Positions 2,255-62,241 of a stretch of 64,000 nucleotides of DNA are shown here, in pieces (positions within the stretch are counted from its first letter, which is position 1; every line of letters begins with the position of its first letter). Made by a program: the position numbers and the translations under genes. The DNA comes from an uncultured Candidatus Saccharibacteria bacterium (GTDB taxonomy: Bacteria > Patescibacteriota > Minisyncoccia > Phycocordibacterales > PALSA-1337). The stretch is taken from the NCBI GenBank assembly GCA_964542675.1, contig CAZIUH010000002.1:98-64097 (forward strand), read 5' to 3'. The notes under the pieces are model-generated. The model had not been told where the DNA came from. It searched no databases and saw only the letters and a program-made list of their open reading frames with translations.

Positions 2255-2860
2255 TCAGCCCACCGATTCAATCTTTAGTGAAGTTATTGGAGATGGAATC
2301 GGCTTGAATGGCGATTTGGGCTTGATCTCGTGAGTTGAGGACTTTTTCGCGAGGACTTGAGCGCTTTTCACGCCGCCAGTCTGGGCGTTTAATTGTGGCA
2401 GAATACTCAAGTCAGGATGAAAATTTGCCTTGTTTTTATGCGCAACCGCTTTGTTCGGTGGATGCGCACGAGGGACGATCCCGGCCTTTTCCAACAAGAT
2501 ATAACTATCGGGCCGAGTGAATTCACTTGGATGGAAGACATGTCTCCACCAAAGTTCTGATGCGGTGAATCGTTTGTGGATTATTTTGTATTGATGGACC
2601 AATCCGCATACGCATACTCCCAGTATGTACGCGAAATACATTTTGCCAACGATATCATCATCGAAAGCGTCTGGGTCTTCCTCCATTATCTTGACTCGTT
2701 CAACCAATAGCCATCGGCCGCATTCGCATCGCCTGGTGAATTTTTTTATGAGCCGATACATTGTTGAAACCAAAAAAATAATTACGGCGATCGTGAGCCA
2801 CTGCCGTCCTGTAATATTGATTTGAATGTGCATTTTTTCTCCTATGTTTTCCAACACCAA
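2255..2860 (-). CDS. hypothetical membrane protein, one predicted TM, Cys-containing
   Basis: 201-aa ORF with a hydrophobic N-terminal segment and no recognisable family. It sits between ftsH and the ssrA scar region. Confidence 0.35.
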   Translation of the reverse strand: MVLENIGEKMHIQINITGRQWLTIAVIIFLVSTMYRLIKKFTRRCECGRWLLVERVKIMEEDPDAFDDDIVGKMYFAYILGVCVCGLVHQYKIIHKRFTASELWWRHVFHPSEFTRPDSYILLEKAGIVPRAHPPNKAVAHKNKANFHPDLSILPQLNAQTGGVKSAQVLAKKSSTHEIKPKSPFKPIPSPITSLKIESVG

Positions 2861-3007
2861 AATCTAACGGCATATTACTATTGAATATACATTTCGTCAA
2901 TATTTTTGATTACTGGATCCATAATAGTTTTAGACATCAAAAAAAACCAGCATCTAGCCGTAATTCAGAAAAAAGCGGCCCGCCATGAGCGAGCGAAGCG
3001 AGTCGAG

Positions 3008-3029
3008 TGGAGATGCTGGGAGTCGAAGC
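3008..3029 (-). repeat. direct copy of the ssrA 3' end (TGGAGATGCTGGGAGTCGAA), a tRNA-like fragment
   Basis: 21/21 nt identical to the tmRNA T-arm/acceptor 3' segment at 3183-3203. It lacks the 5' half of the T stem, so it is a fragment and not a gene. Confidence 0.6.
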
Positions 3030-3100: not shown

Positions 3101-3148
3101 CTTCGACTCCCAGACGCAAGTCGCGCAGGCGACTTGCTCATCTCCACA
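3101..3148 (+). repeat. inverted, interrupted copy of the ssrA 3' end
   Basis: TTCGACTCCCAG ... CATCTCCACA on the plus strand, with a 25-nt perfect hairpin (GCAAGTCGC/GCGACTTGC) inserted. Its tail forms a 20-bp perfect inverted repeat with the genuine ssrA 3' end. Confidence 0.5.
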
Positions 3149-3182
3149 AACAAAAATCACCCTTTCGGGCAGATTTTTGTTT

Positions 3183-3547
3183 GTGGAGATGCTGGGAGTC
3201 GAACCCAGGTGCAATCGAAGTTGATCGAACGATTCTACGGCGATAGAAATCTTTGAAGTTTAGAAGCCATGTTATGAAAGAAAACAAAACGCATAGCTTC
3301 GATCTCTAAGTTTCGGATAATACGACGAGAAATCGTACTACCCTACATCCAGGTAATAACGCCTATCCAGAAGGTCAGGATCCCCCTCTAGTAGACGCGC
3401 GCTTATACAAACGCGAATGCGAAGTCCTTGGCTCCGAAATACGGAGAAACAGAAGATTTAGCAATTAGGTTTTGCATCGGATTTATAAGTCGATACTGCT
3501 TACGCCGCACGAACAATAACATACGATTGTCGATGCCTTTCATCCCC
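3183..3547 (-). ncRNA. ssrA: tmRNA (transfer-messenger RNA)
   Basis: Minus-strand 5' GGGGATG pairs with 3' CATCTCC, including a G3:U70 wobble (alanine identity). T-arm CTGGG-TTCGACT-CCCAG, discriminator A. P2a-like pairing CAATCG/CGATTG. About 365 nt. Candidate tag ORFs end at TAA (...AKDFAFAFV* or ...AKPNC*). smpB lies immediately upstream on the same strand. Confidence 0.7.
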
Positions 3548-3552
3548 AGTGT

Positions 3553-3623
3553 GGAATTATGAATTGTGAATGGAAGCCGAAATTGACTATATTCATAATT
3601 CCTAATTCTTAATTCATAATTCG
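3553..3623. repeat. GAATTAN heptamer-array inverted pair between smpB and ssrA
   Basis: GGAATTATGAATTGTGAATGG and TTCATAATTCCTAATTCTTAATTCATAATTCG. Confidence 0.7.
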
Positions 3624-3628
3624 CGCTG

Positions 3629-4105
3629 TCAACGATCTTTCATAACTCTTCCCATCTCCCTATCACTCTCGCGGCGTTTCGTCGTTTCTCTTTTGTCATA
3701 CTTCCTTTTGCCGCGTACCGAAGCCACGCTTACCTTGATTCGGTTATTCACACTATAAGCCGAAATCGGTACTATTGTCAAGCGCCGACCTGCTTCAATG
3801 GTCGCCAGTTTTCTGATCTCATCCTTATTCAATATCAACTTCCTATTCCTCCTCGGTTCATAATCTCCCGGCGTGTTCTTTTCCTGATACGGCGGAATGA
3901 ACATATTCACGACATACGCCTCCCCACCGCGCACTATCACATACGCGCCATCAAACGAACCTTGACTTTTCTTCAATGATTTTACTTCGAACCCGAGTAG
4001 CTCTATACCCGCCTCGAATGTATCCTGGATTTCATAGTTGAATCGCGCTTTTTTATTGTCTATTAATATCGTCATGACAATATCATAATCGTAACATATT
4101 GACAT
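3629..4105 (-). CDS. smpB: SsrA-binding protein SmpB
   Basis: NKKARFNYEI, GIELLGFEVKSL and LILNKDEIRKL match SmpB hallmarks. The start may be the internal Met in MTILIDNKK. It is adjacent to ssrA. Confidence 0.85.
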   Translation of the reverse strand: MSICYDYDIVMTILIDNKKARFNYEIQDTFEAGIELLGFEVKSLKKSQGSFDGAYVIVRGGEAYVVNMFIPPYQEKNTPGDYEPRRNRKLILNKDEIRKLATIEAGRRLTIVPISAYSVNNRIKVSVASVRGKRKYDKRETTKRRESDREMGRVMKDR

Positions 4106-4147
4106 ACTTGTGACGAAGGTTTAGCCTGAAAATGCTATAATCCCTTC

Positions 4148-5227
4148 ATGTCATCATTAACCGACTGGAATCTATACGCCACCAACGAAGATGCCTGGAA
4201 TGCTATGCTCGTCGACTGCGCGCAGGCAAAAGAGAGTATAGTTCTGGAGCAATTTATTTTTGTGGCCGATGATTTCGGGCAAAGACTCATAGATATTTGC
4301 GCCAAGAGAGCCGCTGAAAGCGTCAAAGTACGATTTCTTTGGGATGCCGCCGGTAGCTTCACATTTTGGGGTTCTAATATCGCCGAAGATTTGCGACAAA
4401 AAGGTATAGAACTTATGTTTTGGCGAACTCTTATCCCAGGATACTTCAAGACTCCAAGTTTGCGTTCTTGGTTTTTGAGAAACCATCGTCGCACTTTGGT
4501 TATCGACAGTGAGATCGGATATACCGGCAGTATTTGCATGAATGATCGCATGAAGAACTGGCGCGACACGAATCTTCGATTGGAAGGTATCGCGGCAAAA
4601 CAAATGGAAAAAGCGTTCAATCGCATGTGGGAACGCGCCCACGGTTCCAAGAATTTGCCCGGACACGCCCGCGTGAAAGATCACGAGTTTCGTTATGTCA
4701 CGAATTACCCCGCACCGGGAAGAAGACATATCAATTATGAACTCATAAAAGCCGTGCGCAACGCGAAAAAATCCATCCTGATCACGACTCCGTATTTCAT
4801 CCCGACTCATCGTCTGGCACGCGCGCTCAAACTGGCGGCCAAGCGCGGTGTAACGGTGAAAATAATATTACCCGAAAAATCCGATTATTACGCTGTTGAT
4901 CTTGGCGCGCGTTCGTATTTCAACACGCTCCTTGAAGCTGGCGCGAAAATATTCCTATATGAAGGTAATATGATACATAGTAAAACGGTTACCATTGACG
5001 GTATTTGGTCAACTGTCGGTACAATGAATCTGGATAATATCAGCATGCTCTATAACTTTGAAGCGAATATCGTGAGCACGAATGTCAAATTCGCCCATGA
5101 ATTGGAAAAGCATTTCACCGATGATCTCGCTGAGTCCAAGGAAGTTATCTTGAATGAATGGCATAACCGCTTCTTCGTTGAAAAAATTCCCGAGATACTC
5201 ATTCGTTTGGTTCGCAAATTCTTATAA
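4148..5227 (+). CDS. phospholipase D family protein, cardiolipin synthase-like
   Basis: Two PLD-type motifs: a degenerate HRRTLVID and a canonical HSKTVTIDG...GTMNLD (HxKxxxxD). 359 aa. Confidence 0.7.
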   Translation: MSSLTDWNLYATNEDAWNAMLVDCAQAKESIVLEQFIFVADDFGQRLIDICAKRAAESVKVRFLWDAAGSFTFWGSNIAEDLRQKGIELMFWRTLIPGYFKTPSLRSWFLRNHRRTLVIDSEIGYTGSICMNDRMKNWRDTNLRLEGIAAKQMEKAFNRMWERAHGSKNLPGHARVKDHEFRYVTNYPAPGRRHINYELIKAVRNAKKSILITTPYFIPTHRLARALKLAAKRGVTVKIILPEKSDYYAVDLGARSYFNTLLEAGAKIFLYEGNMIHSKTVTIDGIWSTVGTMNLDNISMLYNFEANIVSTNVKFAHELEKHFTDDLAESKEVILNEWHNRFFVEKIPEILIRLVRKFL

Positions 5228-5248
5228 TCATCTTCTGGTTGTTTTTCC

Positions 5249-5393
5249 GCGAACTCCCGCAAGGGCAAAACACATCCCCACGCGAAGTATTGTAAGAGGC
5301 ATAACCTGTGGCACATTATACTTTGGCCTGGCGTATTTATGCAGGTGCCATCCACTTCGCGTGGGGATGTGTTTTGCCCTTGCGGGAATTCGC
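5249..5393. repeat. long near-perfect inverted repeat (about 40-bp arms, 34 bp perfect, about 65-nt spacer)
   Basis: TCCCGCAAGGGCAAAACACATCCCCACGCGAAGT at 5255-5288 is the exact reverse complement of 5354-5387. It lies between the PLD-family gene and infC. Confidence 0.8.
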
Positions 5394-5401
5394 GAAGTAG
5401 A

Positions 5402-5956
5402 ATGTTGCGCAAATCACGGCGTTATGCTATAAATATCCTTGTAATCCACGTGATAAAAGTACGCATAAATCATCAAATCAAAGTCTCCGAATTACGGGTC
5501 ATCACAGAAGATGGGGACAATCTTGGCGTGTTATCCCTTAGCCAAGCGCTTATCGAGGCCAAAAATCGCGGGTTGGATTTGATAGAAGTTTCCCCCAATG
5601 CCACACCACCTATCGGTAAGATAATGGATTATGGCAAATATCAGTACGACGAGAAGAAGAAAGCCAAAATCTCCAAAAATCGTTCACAAGTGAGCGAGAT
5701 GAAGAGTATCCAAGTCAAGATTGGCACTGGCGAACACGATCTGGAACTAAAAGCTAAGAGGGTTTCCGAATGGCTTTCAGAAGGAAATCGTGTTAGGGTT
5801 GACCTCTATTTGGTGGGACGCGCTAAATACATGGAATTAAAATTCTTAAAAGAGCGTTTGGACAGGATCTTGAAACTAATCAGTGTTGAATACAAAGTAT
5901 CACAAGAACCAATCAGAGGACCAAGAGGATTGGCATTAGTAGTTGAGAAAAAGTAA
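5402..5956 (+). CDS. infC: translation initiation factor IF-3
   Basis: ELRVITEDGDNLGVLSLSQALIEAKNRGLDLIEVSPNATPPIGKIMDYGKY... The start is uncertain: Met at 5402, or a non-AUG start (ATA/ATT near 5465, as is common for infC). The upstream part of the 5339 ORF is probably not translated. Confidence 0.8.
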   Translation: MLRKSRRYAINILVIHVIKVRINHQIKVSELRVITEDGDNLGVLSLSQALIEAKNRGLDLIEVSPNATPPIGKIMDYGKYQYDEKKKAKISKNRSQVSEMKSIQVKIGTGEHDLELKAKRVSEWLSEGNRVRVDLYLVGRAKYMELKFLKERLDRILKLISVEYKVSQEPIRGPRGLALVVEKK

Positions 5957-6555: not shown

Positions 6556-6675
6556 CCAAGCTAGTACATCTAGCTGGCCCCAATCATCGGGGTCATCTGG
6601 AAGCGCCGTCAAGGCGGGTCCCGATGGGTTGTTGTTGATCCTATTCGGACTTAAGGGCGTGTCATCGCTCTTTCG

Positions 6676-6739
6676 CCTCGGAGAAGCTAGAGCCGGGTCC
6701 TCCTTTCCCTGCCTCTATCTCTCTCCGAGGTCTTTTTTA
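6676..6739 (+). terminator. candidate terminator after rplT (long stem plus T-run)
   Basis: CCTCGGAGA...TCTCCGAGG stem followed by TCTTTTTT. Convergent with the beta-CASP gene. Confidence 0.4.
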
Positions 6740-6769
6740 TGCGTAAGGTTCAATCTTATGCATATAAGA

Positions 6770-8215
6770 TTAAACCTCAATGGACTGTAAATTAACTTTG
6801 TCCCCTATTTTCGGCACGACTGCTTTCACTTTCAGTTCTTCATTTATTTTCTGCGCCAAAAACATCGATGCTTTCGGCTCGCCCATGGTGACAAAAACTT
6901 GTTTCAGACGGTTTGTGGCATTAGAAACAAATCCTAGAAGATGATCACTGTCTTTATGCGCTGAATAACCGTACAATTTTTCAATACGCGCGTGAATTTG
7001 TACTTTCTGTTTGTGAATATGAACTTTTTTCGCTCCGTCAGCCAATCGCCTGCCAAGAGAACCAACTGTTTGATAGCCGACTAACAGGATCGTATTCTTG
7101 GAATCAGGCAAATATGTTTCTTCATGACCTGTAACTCTCCCGCCAACCGACATGCCTGAACCAGCCAGAATTATTTTGGCGCCTTTTATTTTATCTATGT
7201 CTCGCGATTCATTCTGGGACATGATGAATTCTAGATTTTTGAAATCAAATATATCATCACCTTTAGCTATTTGATTTCTTACATAATCATTAAAAAGGTC
7301 AGTATTTTCCGCATAAATTTTCGTCGCTTTTATCGCCATGGGAGAATCCACGAATATTGGAATTGACGGGATTTTTTTCTGTTCAACCATATTATTTAGC
7401 TCATACAAAAGGACCTGCGTGCGATCTATTGAGAAAGTTGGAATGACCAATGTCCCGGCATAAGCGATTGTTTTTTTTATTACCCTTTCGAATTCGCTCA
7501 CTCTTTGTTCCTTCGATTCATGGTTGCGGTCCCCGTAAACACTTTCCATTATTAGATAATCAATATCACCGATAGATTCCGTGTCTTGGAGTAACGGCGC
7601 CGGTGAATTGCCGAGATCTCCGGTAAATAGAATTCTAATCAGATTCGTGTCACTTCCATCTTGCGTACTTGCGCGTTTGCGTACTTGCGCACTGATCTCC
7701 ACCATCGCTGATCCGAGAATATGGCCCGCGTCTTTGAGAAGAATGGATATACCCGGGACAATCTCCAAATTTTCATGATATCGAATAGTACGCCACAGTA
7801 GAAAAACAACCCGAATATCATTCAAGTCAAATAATGGCGCGACACCGTCTTGTCTGGCTTCAAGGGCGAGAATACCAGCGGCATCCGTCAGAACCAATTC
7901 GGCAAGTTCCTTTGTTTGAGGAGTTGAATAAATGACGCCATGGAAGCCTTCCTTAACCAGTTTTGGAATGCGACCGATGTGATCGAGATGAGCATGGGTT
8001 ACAATCAGAGCTTGAATGGAAACCGGATTGTATGGAAAAGGTTCGCGATTTTTCTCTTCATCAAATCGCTCTCCTTGCATCATGCCGCAATCCACTAATA
8101 TTTTTGAATTATTCGCGAAATCATTTTCTTGACTGCCTTCACGTTCAAGTAAAAAATTTGCTCCGGTGACGGCACCGACTCCGGAACAAAAAGTTATTTG
8201 TAAAGCTTTTGACAT
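6770..8215 (-). CDS. MBL-fold metallo-hydrolase, beta-CASP/RNA-metabolising type (RNase J/CPSF-like)
   Basis: HAHLDHIGRIPKL metallo-beta-lactamase motif, about 480 aa, and a C-terminal region typical of beta-CASP nucleases. Confidence 0.65.
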   Translation of the reverse strand: MSKALQITFCSGVGAVTGANFLLEREGSQENDFANNSKILVDCGMMQGERFDEEKNREPFPYNPVSIQALIVTHAHLDHIGRIPKLVKEGFHGVIYSTPQTKELAELVLTDAAGILALEARQDGVAPLFDLNDIRVVFLLWRTIRYHENLEIVPGISILLKDAGHILGSAMVEISAQVRKRASTQDGSDTNLIRILFTGDLGNSPAPLLQDTESIGDIDYLIMESVYGDRNHESKEQRVSEFERVIKKTIAYAGTLVIPTFSIDRTQVLLYELNNMVEQKKIPSIPIFVDSPMAIKATKIYAENTDLFNDYVRNQIAKGDDIFDFKNLEFIMSQNESRDIDKIKGAKIILAGSGMSVGGRVTGHEETYLPDSKNTILLVGYQTVGSLGRRLADGAKKVHIHKQKVQIHARIEKLYGYSAHKDSDHLLGFVSNATNRLKQVFVTMGEPKASMFLAQKINEELKVKAVVPKIGDKVNLQSIEV

Positions 8216-21572: not shown

Positions 21573-21579
21573 AATAGTT

Positions 21580-21648
21580 GAATTATGAATTACGAATATA
21601 CATTCTACTTCATTGTTTTATATTCATAATTCGTAATTCTTAATTCAC
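21580..21648. repeat. GAATTAN heptamer-array inverted pair (rpsQ–rplN spacer)
   Basis: GAATTATGAATTACGAATA ... TTCATAATTCGTAATTCTTAATTC. Confidence 0.7.
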
Positions 21649-56037: not shown

Positions 56038-56149
56038 ATGACAATTATAGCAGAAACACGAGACAGGCAGGCAAGTTTTTTCAAATCCGAGTATTTATTT
56101 CACCCTTAAAAAACTCGCCTGCCTGTCTCGTGTTTCTGCGTAGACTGAA

Positions 56150-59152: not shown

Positions 59153-60939
59153 GGTCCCATCAATATTTGTGTTTCTCGCCAGTTCAAATCCGAGCCGATC
59201 GTAACTGAAGTTAAATTGGTAGAATAACCCGATTTTGACACCTCAATATTATAATCCCGCGCCAATAGACCCGTAAAAATAACTTGACCGGAGGGCACGC
59301 AATTTGAAGTGTAAGTAAAAGCAATATCGGAAATATTCGGCGAGACCGTTTCATCATCGGTGGCGAGATAGACGCGATATCTGGCATATCTGTCAGCATT
59401 ATGAACAGAGTTCAAAGAAGAATTTGAAGCGAGATAATAACTCGCGTCCGTGCCGTCAGGACCCTTGAATTTCCAAGTTGTCGTTGCCGTATTCGTGGCA
59501 TTCGTGGCAAATTGCATTCGCACGCTATTTATCCCCGCAAGAATCGGTTGATCTATAGGCGACCAAATCAGAGAAAAGAAATTACTGATTGAACCCGTGT
59601 CAAAGGTGGATGATTCAAGAATACCGCTTTGATTGTATTCATCAAACGCGCCGCGCAATCTGATCTGTCCAGCCGTCGTCGTAACATCAATGTTACCGTC
59701 ATCAGAAAAATATTTCGCTTTGTTGGAAAAATCCACTTCTCCAGAACCAGAAGACCAATCCGTTTGTGAGAGATATCCTTGTCCCGTTACCAATGTTCTT
59801 CCGGATTCTTCACCTTGATACAATCTGACGGTCGCGCCGGAAAGTGGCAATTGAGTGGTACTATCTTTGACCGTCACAACCAGACCTTTTTCTTCCTTCG
59901 GCGTCACTATCATCTGAATATTTTGTGAACCACCGGGATTCACGGCCACGAAATTCAATGGATTTATTCCTGACAAGAATCGTGTCGCATCATTCGAGGA
60001 AATGTTGTATGAATCCCATTCCATGGAGTTCAAGTCGAAAATCCCGGAGCTATTCGTCGTCATATTCTCGCTATATTTCGGAATATTTTCACCGATTTGT
60101 TTTGAACCGACCATCTTGAATCCAAAATTTGAAGCTGGTTCGCATGTTGGCGATACGGCGGAAAAATGGATAGTACTCAATCGATCGATCGCGAAACTCA
60201 CTTGCGTTACCCGTTGAAGCAAGATCGTTGAATCTGGTTTCGTAGGATTTGGATTGGATGGATCGCTTATCGGATATGTTCTGTCAGTGGAATAGCCACT
60301 TTTCGAAACAATAATCCTATAAGCATTGTCTCCGGGTGGAACGTCGACGAGTTGTAGCATGCCATTTGCGTCGGTTACATCATCGATCACAATAGTCGTA
60401 CTTGTCGCCACATTCACGACATGCACGGAAGCACCTTGAACAGGTTGGCCATTTGCGTCGAAAACGCGAATGAACAGCGCGCCGTTGACCGAGGCTGTTT
60501 CCAAATTTTTTGGCGCGACTTGCCCGACAAGCGTGATCGGCTGCATATTCTTGCAACCATCGCATGAAACTTCGACTTGAACCAGTTTATTATCCGCCGG
60601 AGAAAGATCACTCGGCGTACCACCGATGATGCCGTCGAAAGGTAGATCAATATTGCGTACTGTCGTTGTCACCGTGAATGTGATTCCTCCCCTCGTCAAG
60701 TTTTGTATGCGTGGAATATTTCCATTCGGAATACCGCCCACCACCCCAACCACGGCATAAGGCATATTCCGCGCGATTTCGAATTGTTCATTAGCGAGGT
60801 CCAATGCCAGCACTTTATTTTGATTGAGCGCGATAAGTTGGAACAAAGAAACATACGCGTTGTACGCGGCAATAGCGATAATCACGAAAACCGCCGTACC
60901 GACCAGAACTTCAACTAATGTGAATCCTTTTTTATTCAT
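59149..60939 (-). CDS. large type IV pilin-like protein (596 aa)
   Basis: MNKKGFTLVEVLVGTAVFVIIAIAAYNAY prepilin N-terminus, followed by a roughly 560-aa Thr/Ser/Gly-rich beta domain. Confidence 0.7.
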   Translation of the reverse strand: MNKKGFTLVEVLVGTAVFVIIAIAAYNAYVSLFQLIALNQNKVLALDLANEQFEIARNMPYAVVGVVGGIPNGNIPRIQNLTRGGITFTVTTTVRNIDLPFDGIIGGTPSDLSPADNKLVQVEVSCDGCKNMQPITLVGQVAPKNLETASVNGALFIRVFDANGQPVQGASVHVVNVATSTTIVIDDVTDANGMLQLVDVPPGDNAYRIIVSKSGYSTDRTYPISDPSNPNPTKPDSTILLQRVTQVSFAIDRLSTIHFSAVSPTCEPASNFGFKMVGSKQIGENIPKYSENMTTNSSGIFDLNSMEWDSYNISSNDATRFLSGINPLNFVAVNPGGSQNIQMIVTPKEEKGLVVTVKDSTTQLPLSGATVRLYQGEESGRTLVTGQGYLSQTDWSSGSGEVDFSNKAKYFSDDGNIDVTTTAGQIRLRGAFDEYNQSGILESSTFDTGSISNFFSLIWSPIDQPILAGINSVRMQFATNATNTATTTWKFKGPDGTDASYYLASNSSLNSVHNADRYARYRVYLATDDETVSPNISDIAFTYTSNCVPSGQVIFTGLLARDYNIEVSKSGYSTNLTSVTIGSDLNWRETQILMGP

Positions 60940-61023
60940 AATTCATAATTCGTAATTCAAAGGTTTATCAAAAAAAAGTTTGTGACCTAGTATTATGAAT
61001 TATGAATTATGAATTATGAATTA
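60935..61023. repeat. GAATTAN heptamer-array inverted pair (pilC–pilin spacer), with a 4x tandem TGAATTA
   Basis: TTCATAATTCATAATTCGTAATTC ... TATTATGAATTATGAATTATGAATTATGAATTAA. Confidence 0.75.
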
Positions 61024-62241
61024 AACCGCGTTCACTAAAGAATATATCGGTGAAATCATCGACACCGCGAAAAATCCGACCGCCGCCGCGATAATGACCA
61101 TAAGTATCGGCTCAATAACCGTTGACATATCCTTCGTCTTTTGATTTACGTCTTCTTCGTAATAACGCGCCACGCCTGTTAACATTTCCGAGATTTTACC
61201 CGTCTCTTCACCGACGCTCATCATTTCCGCCAAGAAAACCGGGTACAGATCCGAATTATCATTGAAGACTTTCGACATTAGATCTCCTTTTTTGATCGCT
61301 TCTTTGGCTTTCAATAGGACAGCGCGAAAATGTACATTCTGAACAACTTCACCAGTAATCTCGACGGATTCAATAACAGGAACACCGGCCGACAATAGAG
61401 AGGCGAGCGTTCTTGCCGTTCTCGCCGCGTTCACTTCCCGCACCAAGGTGCCGACAACGGGCGTTTTCAACATAAGTAAATGATTGAATCTTTTCCCTAT
61501 TTTCTGTTTTGACCACCAATACAAAGCGCCAACAAGCATGATCAATCCAATCAAAATCAATATTCCATAATGTTCCATGGCCGTACTTATTCCCAGAATA
61601 ATTCTAGTTGAAAGTGGCAGAGTCACATTCATTTCCGTGAATGTTTTCATGAGTGTTGGAATAACAAAGATTAACATGAGTATAGCTATGACAATCATGA
61701 TGAAGACAATAATCGTCGGATATATAAGCGCGCCGCGAACACGTCTTTCAAGGGCATATGAATTGTCCATCTGTTCAGCCACGATTTTGAGCGAATCGGC
61801 TAGTGTGCCGGACTGCTCACCGGCATGCGCCATGGAAATGAAAACTTGAGGAAAAACACGTGGATATTTCGCCAGCGAATCGGAAAATGTCATACCACGG
61901 CTTATCTCAGCCGTGATATTACCGAGAATTTTTTTGAATGTGTTATTATGGCTTTGCTTCTCCAAAACCGAAAGAGCGCGCGAAAGCGCCAACCCGGCTT
62001 CTAGCATTGACCCGAGATTACGCGCGAAATTGATTTTTTCAACAGTTCGCACGCGCTTGAATATTGCATTCCAATAAATATTCACGCGCGTGCCGCGCCC
62101 GGCTTTCTTCTCATTGACAGAAATTATTTCATCGCCGTCTTCCCTGATCAGACGATATAATTCAAAACGATCGGTGGCGTCTTTCTCGCTTGAATATATT
62201 TCCCCGTCGGGTTTTTTTGCTTTGAATATGAAATGGGACAT
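61021..62241 (-). CDS. pilC: type IV pilus assembly platform protein PilC (GspF family)
   Basis: Two T2SSF repeats and 3 TM. 406 aa. Confidence 0.85.
   Translation of the reverse strand: MSHFIFKAKKPDGEIYSSEKDATDRFELYRLIREDGDEIISVNEKKAGRGTRVNIYWNAIFKRVRTVEKINFARNLGSMLEAGLALSRALSVLEKQSHNNTFKKILGNITAEISRGMTFSDSLAKYPRVFPQVFISMAHAGEQSGTLADSLKIVAEQMDNSYALERRVRGALIYPTIIVFIMIVIAILMLIFVIPTLMKTFTEMNVTLPLSTRIILGISTAMEHYGILILIGLIMLVGALYWWSKQKIGKRFNHLLMLKTPVVGTLVREVNAARTARTLASLLSAGVPVIESVEITGEVVQNVHFRAVLLKAKEAIKKGDLMSKVFNDNSDLYPVFLAEMMSVGEETGKISEMLTGVARYYEEDVNQKTKDMSTVIEPILMVIIAAAVGFFAVSMISPIYSLVNAV

Follow-up and report, generated by a model that had tools for sequence, protein, structure and literature searches.

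A long inverted repeat between cls and infC as a possible decayed copy of a dispersed palindromic family of Paceibacteria

Introduction

A long, nearly perfect inverted repeat lies just upstream of infC, the gene of IF3, in the stretch of DNA analyzed here (64,000 nucleotides, hereafter the window). Does this repeat control infC, and what else could account for such exact arms? An earlier note placed it in the infC leader, where it was proposed to act like the L20-binding leader of Firmicutes, or alternatively took it for a recent palindromic insertion of the MITE or REP kind. Our analysis favors, with a probability of about 0.55, a reading in which the repeat descends vertically from a palindromic family dispersed in Paceibacteria, has since decayed, and has no dedicated role for infC.

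Results

Anatomy and surroundings of the inverted repeat

A repeat search of the window showed that the two arms (Table 1) are 98% complementary, with C5254/A5388 as the sole mismatch. The 34-mer quoted earlier is exact at 5255-5288 (+) and 5354-5387 (-), and the near-perfect repeat with 34 bp exact and a 65-nt loop is thereby confirmed. The arms are indeed GC-rich (59-61% G+C vs 42.4% in the window), although the genome, which had been called AT-rich, is only mildly so. Folded as RNA, the 147-nt element reaches -94.9 (+) and -99.1 (-) kcal/mol, with z about -14 to -15; as DNA, its two strands reach -58.6 and -60.7 kcal/mol. The sequence of the repeat is identical in two MEGAHIT assemblies (L002 and L003; L numbers are our handles for loci), and other runs yield two Logan contigs (k=31) that both break 4 nt from the inner arm ends, as a true repeat longer than k would make them do. 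Since the same repeat is found in independent assemblies, it is no artefact of a single one, and we consider the 41-nt inverted repeat as real.

The left arm begins 20 nt past the stop codon of cls, and 55 nt separate the right arm from the probable infC start (GTG 5450). The element is flanked by TTGTTTTTC and AAGTAGAAT. Downstream, infC is followed by rpmI and rplT and then by a convergent beta-CASP/RNase J-like gene; going by the relatives of IF3, the organism belongs to Patescibacteria, class Paceibacteria, among Taylorbacteria-like genomes.

Table 1. Coordinates of the repeat, its neighbors, and the related elements (window positions unless a locus is named)
Feature	Position	Strand	Description
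Left arm of inverted repeat	5248-5288	.	41 nt
Right arm of inverted repeat	5354-5394	.	41 nt
Spacer between arms	5289-5353	+	65 nt
tmRNA	3181-3547	-	
smpB	3629-4105	-	
cls	4148-5227	+	PLD/cardiolipin-synthase-like gene
infC (IF3)	5450-5956	+	probable GTG start
-35 hexamer of infC promoter	5405-5410	+	TTGCGC, 10 nt past right arm
Extended -10 of infC promoter	5425-5434	+	TGCTATAAAT, 17 nt 3' of TTGCGC
Conserved short 5' untranslated stretch	5440-5449	+	TGTAATCCAC; CTGTAATCC in relatives
L005 infC-upstream repeat			41 nt, 2 mismatches; upstream gene cls
L006 infC-upstream repeat			33 nt; upstream gene cls
L007 infC-upstream repeat			39 nt, perfect; upstream gene cls
L035 infC-upstream repeat			41 nt, perfect; upstream gene divergent
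L049 infC-upstream repeat			38 nt, perfect; upstream gene divergent
L117/L119 infC-upstream repeats			30 nt; upstream gene divergent in L117
L019 infC-upstream repeat			upstream gene cls
L042 infC-upstream repeat			upstream gene divergent
L130 infC-upstream repeat			present
Intact family copy, L006	L006:2814-2948		
Intact family copy, L117	L117:1807-1953		
Intact family copy, L019	L019:2818-2939		
Intact family copy, L030	L030:4158-4268		
Intact family copy, L032	L032:4086-4199		
Intact family copy, L022	L022:722-838		
Intact family copy, L018	L018:4096-4238		
Intact family copies, L065	L065:1110-1285 and 2435-2625		

Several other features of the neighborhood deserve a mention. ARAGORN detected no tRNA gene in the whole 64 kb, and the tmRNA only. 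About 175 bp downstream of the tmRNA gene, 3007-3029 directly repeats 23 nt of its 3' end (3183-3205; 22/23 identical), a pattern suggestive of a scar left by an element that integrated at tmRNA. The tmRNA 3' end is similarly duplicated in L032 (about 565-598 and 715-750). A perfect 20-bp hairpin at 3139-3191 has one arm that is the 3' end of the tmRNA gene, a stem absorbing a functional gene end. Arrays of AATTCATAATTC and GAATTATGAATT, in inverted arrangement, occupy three intergenic regions (3554-3622, just upstream of tmRNA; 21579-21647; 60920-61035). After rplT, the 214-nt convergent spacer at 6556-6770 is G+C-rich and strongly structured (z -6.2); it contains a classical U-tract terminator (~6674-6740), and its remainder has no Rfam match.

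The predicted infC promoter lies downstream of the repeat

The cls gene has a leaderless layout, its promoter TGCTATAAT (4133-4141) being followed by 6 nt (cccttc) and the ATG at 4148. The same arrangement, TGnTATAAT then 6-7 nt then ATG, recurs at many genes of the window (4133-4150, 13736, 22268, 32269, 34662, 56052, and 56930), which argues for widespread leaderless mRNAs in this genome. Two further repeats adjoin promoters of this type. At 56050-56139, a 32-nt inverted repeat (97%) follows the stop of a minus-strand gene, putatively tpiA-like according to a by-eye translation of its C-terminus, and the TGC within the TGCTATAAT promoter of the next gene comes from the end of one arm. At 34705-34908, a perfect 31-nt inverted repeat encloses a structured spacer of 142 nt, in which palindromes are nested and CATGTCCGAG recurs; the stop of rplB lies on one side of this repeat and the TGCTATAAT promoter at 34662 (-) on the other.

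A sigma-70-type promoter precedes infC, ~7 nt before a conserved short 5' end. Over 91 distinct infC loci of relatives, the -35 position reads T99 T82 G87 C77, and the -10 aTGCTATAAATa is almost invariant. The transcript is predicted to start within 5440-5449, and CTGTAATCC is not coding because its frame relative to infC varies between lineages. As this conserved promoter lies 3' of the hairpin, the hairpin falls outside the infC leader; going by the predicted promoter, transcripts of infC do not include it, contrary to the earlier placement. Gene callers place the infC start at ATG 5339, within the spacer, and give a protein of 205 aa. Conservation among relatives begins at GTG 5450 (168 aa), and their own starts are also GTG or TTG, so the ATG 5339 start and the 37 N-terminal residues that it adds are probably spurious.

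No Rfam family matched the repeat. L20_leader had no match at gathering score in the window, nor at E<=10 in the region 5000-5700, and the best match of any family was a generic hairpin match to mir-357, under its threshold. Gathering and permissive thresholds applied to the window and 10 related loci returned the tmRNA only.

Relatives carry diverged but paired repeats at the same site

Long near-perfect repeats ending 40-61 nt before infC are also found in relatives (Table 1), with different arm sequences. Every one of the closest relatives (L005, L006, and L007) has a long repeat at the cls-infC site. In other loci the upstream gene is divergent, so a role as terminator of one particular upstream gene would not by itself account for the element. 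In loci with a divergent upstream gene (L035, L049, L119, and L038), a CTTATCCCCA block is conserved 12-25 nt before the element (2779-2836 in L035); it is possibly the upstream element of the divergent promoter.

The cls-infC gene order was found in 61 loci. About 50 of them have a spacer of 30-127 nt carrying the promoter only, while the spacer measures 171-250 nt where an element is recognized. The element is thus dispensable, since most relatives with this gene order have none. The bearers fall into at least 4 separate groups of the IF3 tree.

The stems contain sequences of their surroundings. The cls stop codon lies inside the left arm in L005 and L007, and the -35 box lies inside the right arm in L035, L049, L117, and L005. 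The window arm bears relics of both flanks: at 5248-5256, CGCGAACTC is similar to the cls 3' end CGCAAATTC (5213-5221), and at 5257-5265, CCGCAAGGG is the complement of CCCTTGCGG, a -35-type context. The right arm holds the relic CCCTTGCGG itself (5377-5385), similar to the -35 context of the infC promoters of relatives. Evidently, the stems grew as sequence was copied into them from the native flanks, on one side the 3' end of cls and on the other the -35 context.

Between the window and L005, identity is 66-71% in the arms, 59% in the spacer, and 58% at third codon positions of infC. Of 14 changed arm positions, 12 were altered on both arms and 2 on one. The arms are about as diverged as positions expected to be near-neutral yet still paired, which fits arm conversion or selection for pairing alone. 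With a compensated divergence of ~30%, a recent insertion does not fit.

A dispersed family built on a three-way junction

In L006, L046, L117/L119, L019, and L130, the "loop" between the arms folds as a three-way junction with two perfect hairpins. A covariance model (R1) was built from four infC-upstream junction copies and matched elsewhere: after rplT (L030, L032, and L018), after smpB (L022), and at other sites (L082 and L058). We then built a second model (R2) from the other-site copies only, leaving out those upstream of infC. R2 recovered the infC-upstream copies with 76.2 (L117), 70.9 (L006), 65.5 (L046), 59.1 (L019), and 50.7 bits (L130), and it further found L126, L164, and two copies in L065. 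Intact members of the family score 50-84 bits with R2.

In a model-guided alignment of 15 sequences (A6), all 35 of 35 modelled pairs changed on both sides. Paired cells amount to 95.4%, vs 58% in shuffles and <=50% with partners slid, in an alignment that is itself fitted to the model. MAFFT alignments of the core misaligned divergent members, and model-guided alignments were taken instead. The family combines conserved unpaired nucleotides (GA//GA loops, CGnAG, CGAG, and an AGCA loop) with a long, locus-specific, near-perfect closing stem of 20-41 bp. Because stems are specific to each locus, the search for additional copies of the 34-mer proposed in the earlier note came back negative: no third copy was found in the 64-kb window with <=3 mismatches allowed, and 0/100 shuffles gave one. 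Likeness to hammerhead, K-turn, SRP, 6S, and 5S RNAs was considered and dropped, as defining motifs or Rfam matches were lacking.

The family is strand-biased. Sense scores are far above antisense scores (e.g., 76 vs 22 bits), wobble pairs favor the sense strand (GU 21 vs AC 9), sense folds are mostly more stable than antisense ones, and all model-positive infC-upstream copies share one orientation. Such a bias would fit an RNA as well as an element read as single-stranded DNA, and a strand-specific RNA role is possible. No convincing promoter of their own was seen in front of the family copies, divergent loci included. Their orientation relative to neighbors is mixed, the L022 copy being antisense to both smpB and tmRNA. 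Mixed orientation, the lack of a promoter, and the position of the infC copies upstream of the promoter weigh against a cis-acting RNA.

L065 carries two paralogous family copies in one genome. The copy after rplT in L032 (L032a) is ~80% identical, stem included, to the L022 copy after smpB, and at rplT-rnj, L032 has a filled site (126 nt) where L022 has an empty one (about 5 nt). Together with the patchy spacers and the scattered bearers, these paralogues and this filled/empty site favor a dispersed duplicative element. No target-site duplication was seen at the filled L032 site compared with the empty L022 site, nor at the flanks of the window element. Searching the window and 164 loci for Y1 transposases by tblastn with IS608, IS200, and RAYT sequences, a weak test, gave no match. 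We infer the mobility of the family from its distribution only. An enrichment at the borders of the infC operon (8/12 model matches at two borders, in species-representative loci) was not convincing because the loci are all centered on infC and, by a rough estimate, ~2/5 of the spacers per locus are such borders. The family is absent from Rfam 15, and the literature searched holds no description of it; queries on leaderless promoters or hairpin repeats in Patescibacteria gave nothing relevant.

The window copy compared with the family

No intact family copy was detected within the 64-kb window. With filters off, R2 gave the window copy 16.5 bits (+) and 18.9 bits (-), matching the stem only and skipping the core. 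The window element thus has the long near-perfect stem (20-41 bp) and the site of the family, and not the R2 match to the core. Its site, between cls and the infC promoter, is orthologous to those of the model-positive L006, L019, and L065a, and it is because of this orthologous position that we assign the window copy to the family. The spacer has no detectable similarity to intact family cores; its similarity is significant only to L005, in the same orientation (z 4.6 forward and -0.6 for the reverse complement). On these comparisons, the window spacer would be a degenerate remnant of the three-way-junction core, and a fossil at an orthologous site is the best reading of the window copy. An inversion of the spacer relative to L035/L049 was also considered and rejected: the common AAAGT/ACTTT motif lies in the palindromic part, and the comparison with L005 gives the same orientation.

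Discussion

The preferred reading starts from the family unit, a long locus-specific near-perfect stem capped by a conserved three-way junction. One copy would sit in the spacer that separates the stop of cls from the promoter of infC and would be unnecessary for infC expression. In the window, the conserved core would have eroded while the stem was kept perfect, with intrastrand template switching (quasipalindrome correction) transferring changes from one arm to its partner, and the stem may have lengthened outward by taking up sequence from the 3' end of cls and from the -35 context. In E. coli, template switching is an established route of quasipalindrome correction (PMC7202029). That template switching acted here, and that the element lacks a dedicated function, is what we infer from the comparisons above; the perfect stems could also be kept by selection instead of conversion. 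Any present-day effect would only be passive: read-through RNA from cls would carry a very stable hairpin at its 3' end, or the DNA just before the promoter would be prone to form a cruciform. The MITE/REP-like palindrome suggested at the outset comes closer to the evidence than the leader, as the orthologous elements belong to a dispersed palindromic family, and fails in two respects, the insertion not being recent and the 34-mer having no further copies in the 64 kb.

A functional RNA hairpin ending the cls transcript is the alternative to be weighed most seriously, though we regard it as rather unlikely. The hairpin would terminate transcription without a U tract, be cut by RNase III, or block 3' exonucleases, thereby insulating the infC promoter from read-through and stabilizing cls mRNA. 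It starts close behind the cls stop, no other terminator lies between that stop and the infC promoter, and the repeats at 56050-56139 and 34705-34908, the two other long repeats of the window, have the same order of gene stop, repeat, and promoter of a leaderless gene. Gene ends of relatives are also rich in long perfect hairpins (64 with arms >=18 nt in 795 kb), and the inner stem is followed by UGUGUUUUG. However, this region offers only a weak internal terminator candidate, the full stem has no U tract, being followed by AAGUAGAAUG instead, and its apical region measures 65 nt; the genome uses classical U-tract terminators, for example after rplT. The ~50 cls-infC relatives with short spacers have no hairpin, and in L035, L049, L117, and L042 the divergent upstream gene leaves nothing to terminate. 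More doubtful still is that the family, and possibly the window copy too, represents a structured ncRNA or a protein-binding RNA motif in the sense of infC. Strong covariation, conserved unpaired nucleotides, and the sense bias in scores and wobble pairs speak for it, but strand-specific conservation is equally expected of single-stranded-DNA recognition. The copies have no evident promoter before them and mixed orientation to their neighbors, those near infC sit upstream of its promoter, and the window copy is without the conserved core.

At the DNA level, a cruciform might tune the infC promoter by supercoiling or buffer supercoils between divergent promoters, which we hold to be improbable. 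In the window, 10 nt separate the right arm from the -35, which lies inside that arm in L035, L049, L117, and L005; both DNA strands fold equally well, and the stems are almost pure Watson-Crick. Yet most relatives have the same conserved promoter without any repeat, and copies of the family are also found between convergent genes at a distance from promoters. An invertible promoter switch (inverton), whose recombination sites would be the arms, is very unlikely. The short segment between the arms does contain a perfect TATAAT on the minus strand (5317-5322), but this TATAAT is without the TGn and -35 usual in this genome, three assemblies and the ortholog L005 all show one orientation, no recombinase lies within ~5 kb, and 65 bp is very short for inversion. 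The autoregulatory leader for L20 (or IF3) in the infC-rpmI-rplT operon suggested earlier is the least credible of all. It has in its favor the position upstream of infC only and the Firmicutes precedent (RF00558). That model gave no match even at E<=10, the repeat precedes the conserved promoter, most relatives are without the element, and family copies occupy unrelated sites.

Returning to the decayed family copy, a bolder version of this reading would make the family, seen to date in Paceibacteria only and marked by tandem GA//GA loops, a new ncRNA class or a new kind of mobile element recognized as single-stranded DNA. Its stem would extend itself by copying adjacent host sequence, stop codons and -35 boxes among it, and be kept perfect by intrastrand conversion, with the window copy as a fossil in which the stem has outlived the core; we put this forward only tentatively. 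For annotation, the hairpin should not carry an infC leader label, and the 205-aa IF3 model starting inside it is probably too long. The region is a clean example of leaderless promoter architecture in such genomes. It also offers a natural case of palindrome arms ~30% diverged between species yet perfectly paired, a case relevant to how long palindromes arise, lengthen, and persist in small genomes. Our comparison revealed a conserved, strongly covarying structured family in candidate-phyla-radiation bacteria, outside Rfam, and its intact members merit a genome-wide study.

Comparison with known systems

The window feature is a palindromic intergenic repeat, a known kind, while the family found through it is undescribed in Rfam or in the literature searched. 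REP/REPIN sequences, the repetitive extragenic palindromes mobilized by RAYT (PMC3116915, PMC3733652), resemble the family in being intergenic, often at gene 3' ends or between convergent genes, and hairpin-forming in either orientation. They also share its covarying stems, a strand-specific conservation as for single-stranded DNA recognition, and the lack of a target-site duplication. REPs differ in measuring 20-40 bp, in their GTAG or CGTC tag, and in their tens to hundreds of near-identical copies per genome, whereas the family has locus-specific stems of up to 41 bp, a conserved apical three-way junction, and an apparently low copy number. No GTAG/CGTC tag is conserved across orthologs, a lone GTAG at 5396-5399 being unshared.

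MITEs and Correia, ERIC, and RPE elements are similar in size (~100-160 bp), terminal inverted repeats, transcripts that would form a long hairpin, and patchy presence among relatives. In MITEs, however, the terminal repeats are conserved from copy to copy and the target is directly duplicated, unlike in the family, which has variable ends, a conserved center, and no duplication seen. The window element accordingly has terminal inverted repeats, and no copy sharing them within the 64 kb. L20_leader is likewise a stable structure upstream of infC-rpmI-rplT, but the window element has no match to its model, lies upstream of the promoter, shows no terminator/antiterminator arrangement, and is dispensable in relatives. 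Bidirectional intrinsic terminators share the G+C-rich palindrome right after a stop codon, and here the inner stem is flanked by AAAACAC/GUGUUUU; they differ from the window element with its 65-nt apical region and no U tract past the full stem, and from its homologs between divergent genes. Finally, quasipalindrome correction by template switching, as described in E. coli (PMC7202029), would explain arms that are perfect although they drift and stems that lengthen from adjacent sequence. Its known role is mutational and concerns short quasipalindromes, whereas we invoke it here as a possible long-term homogenization of 30-41-bp arms.
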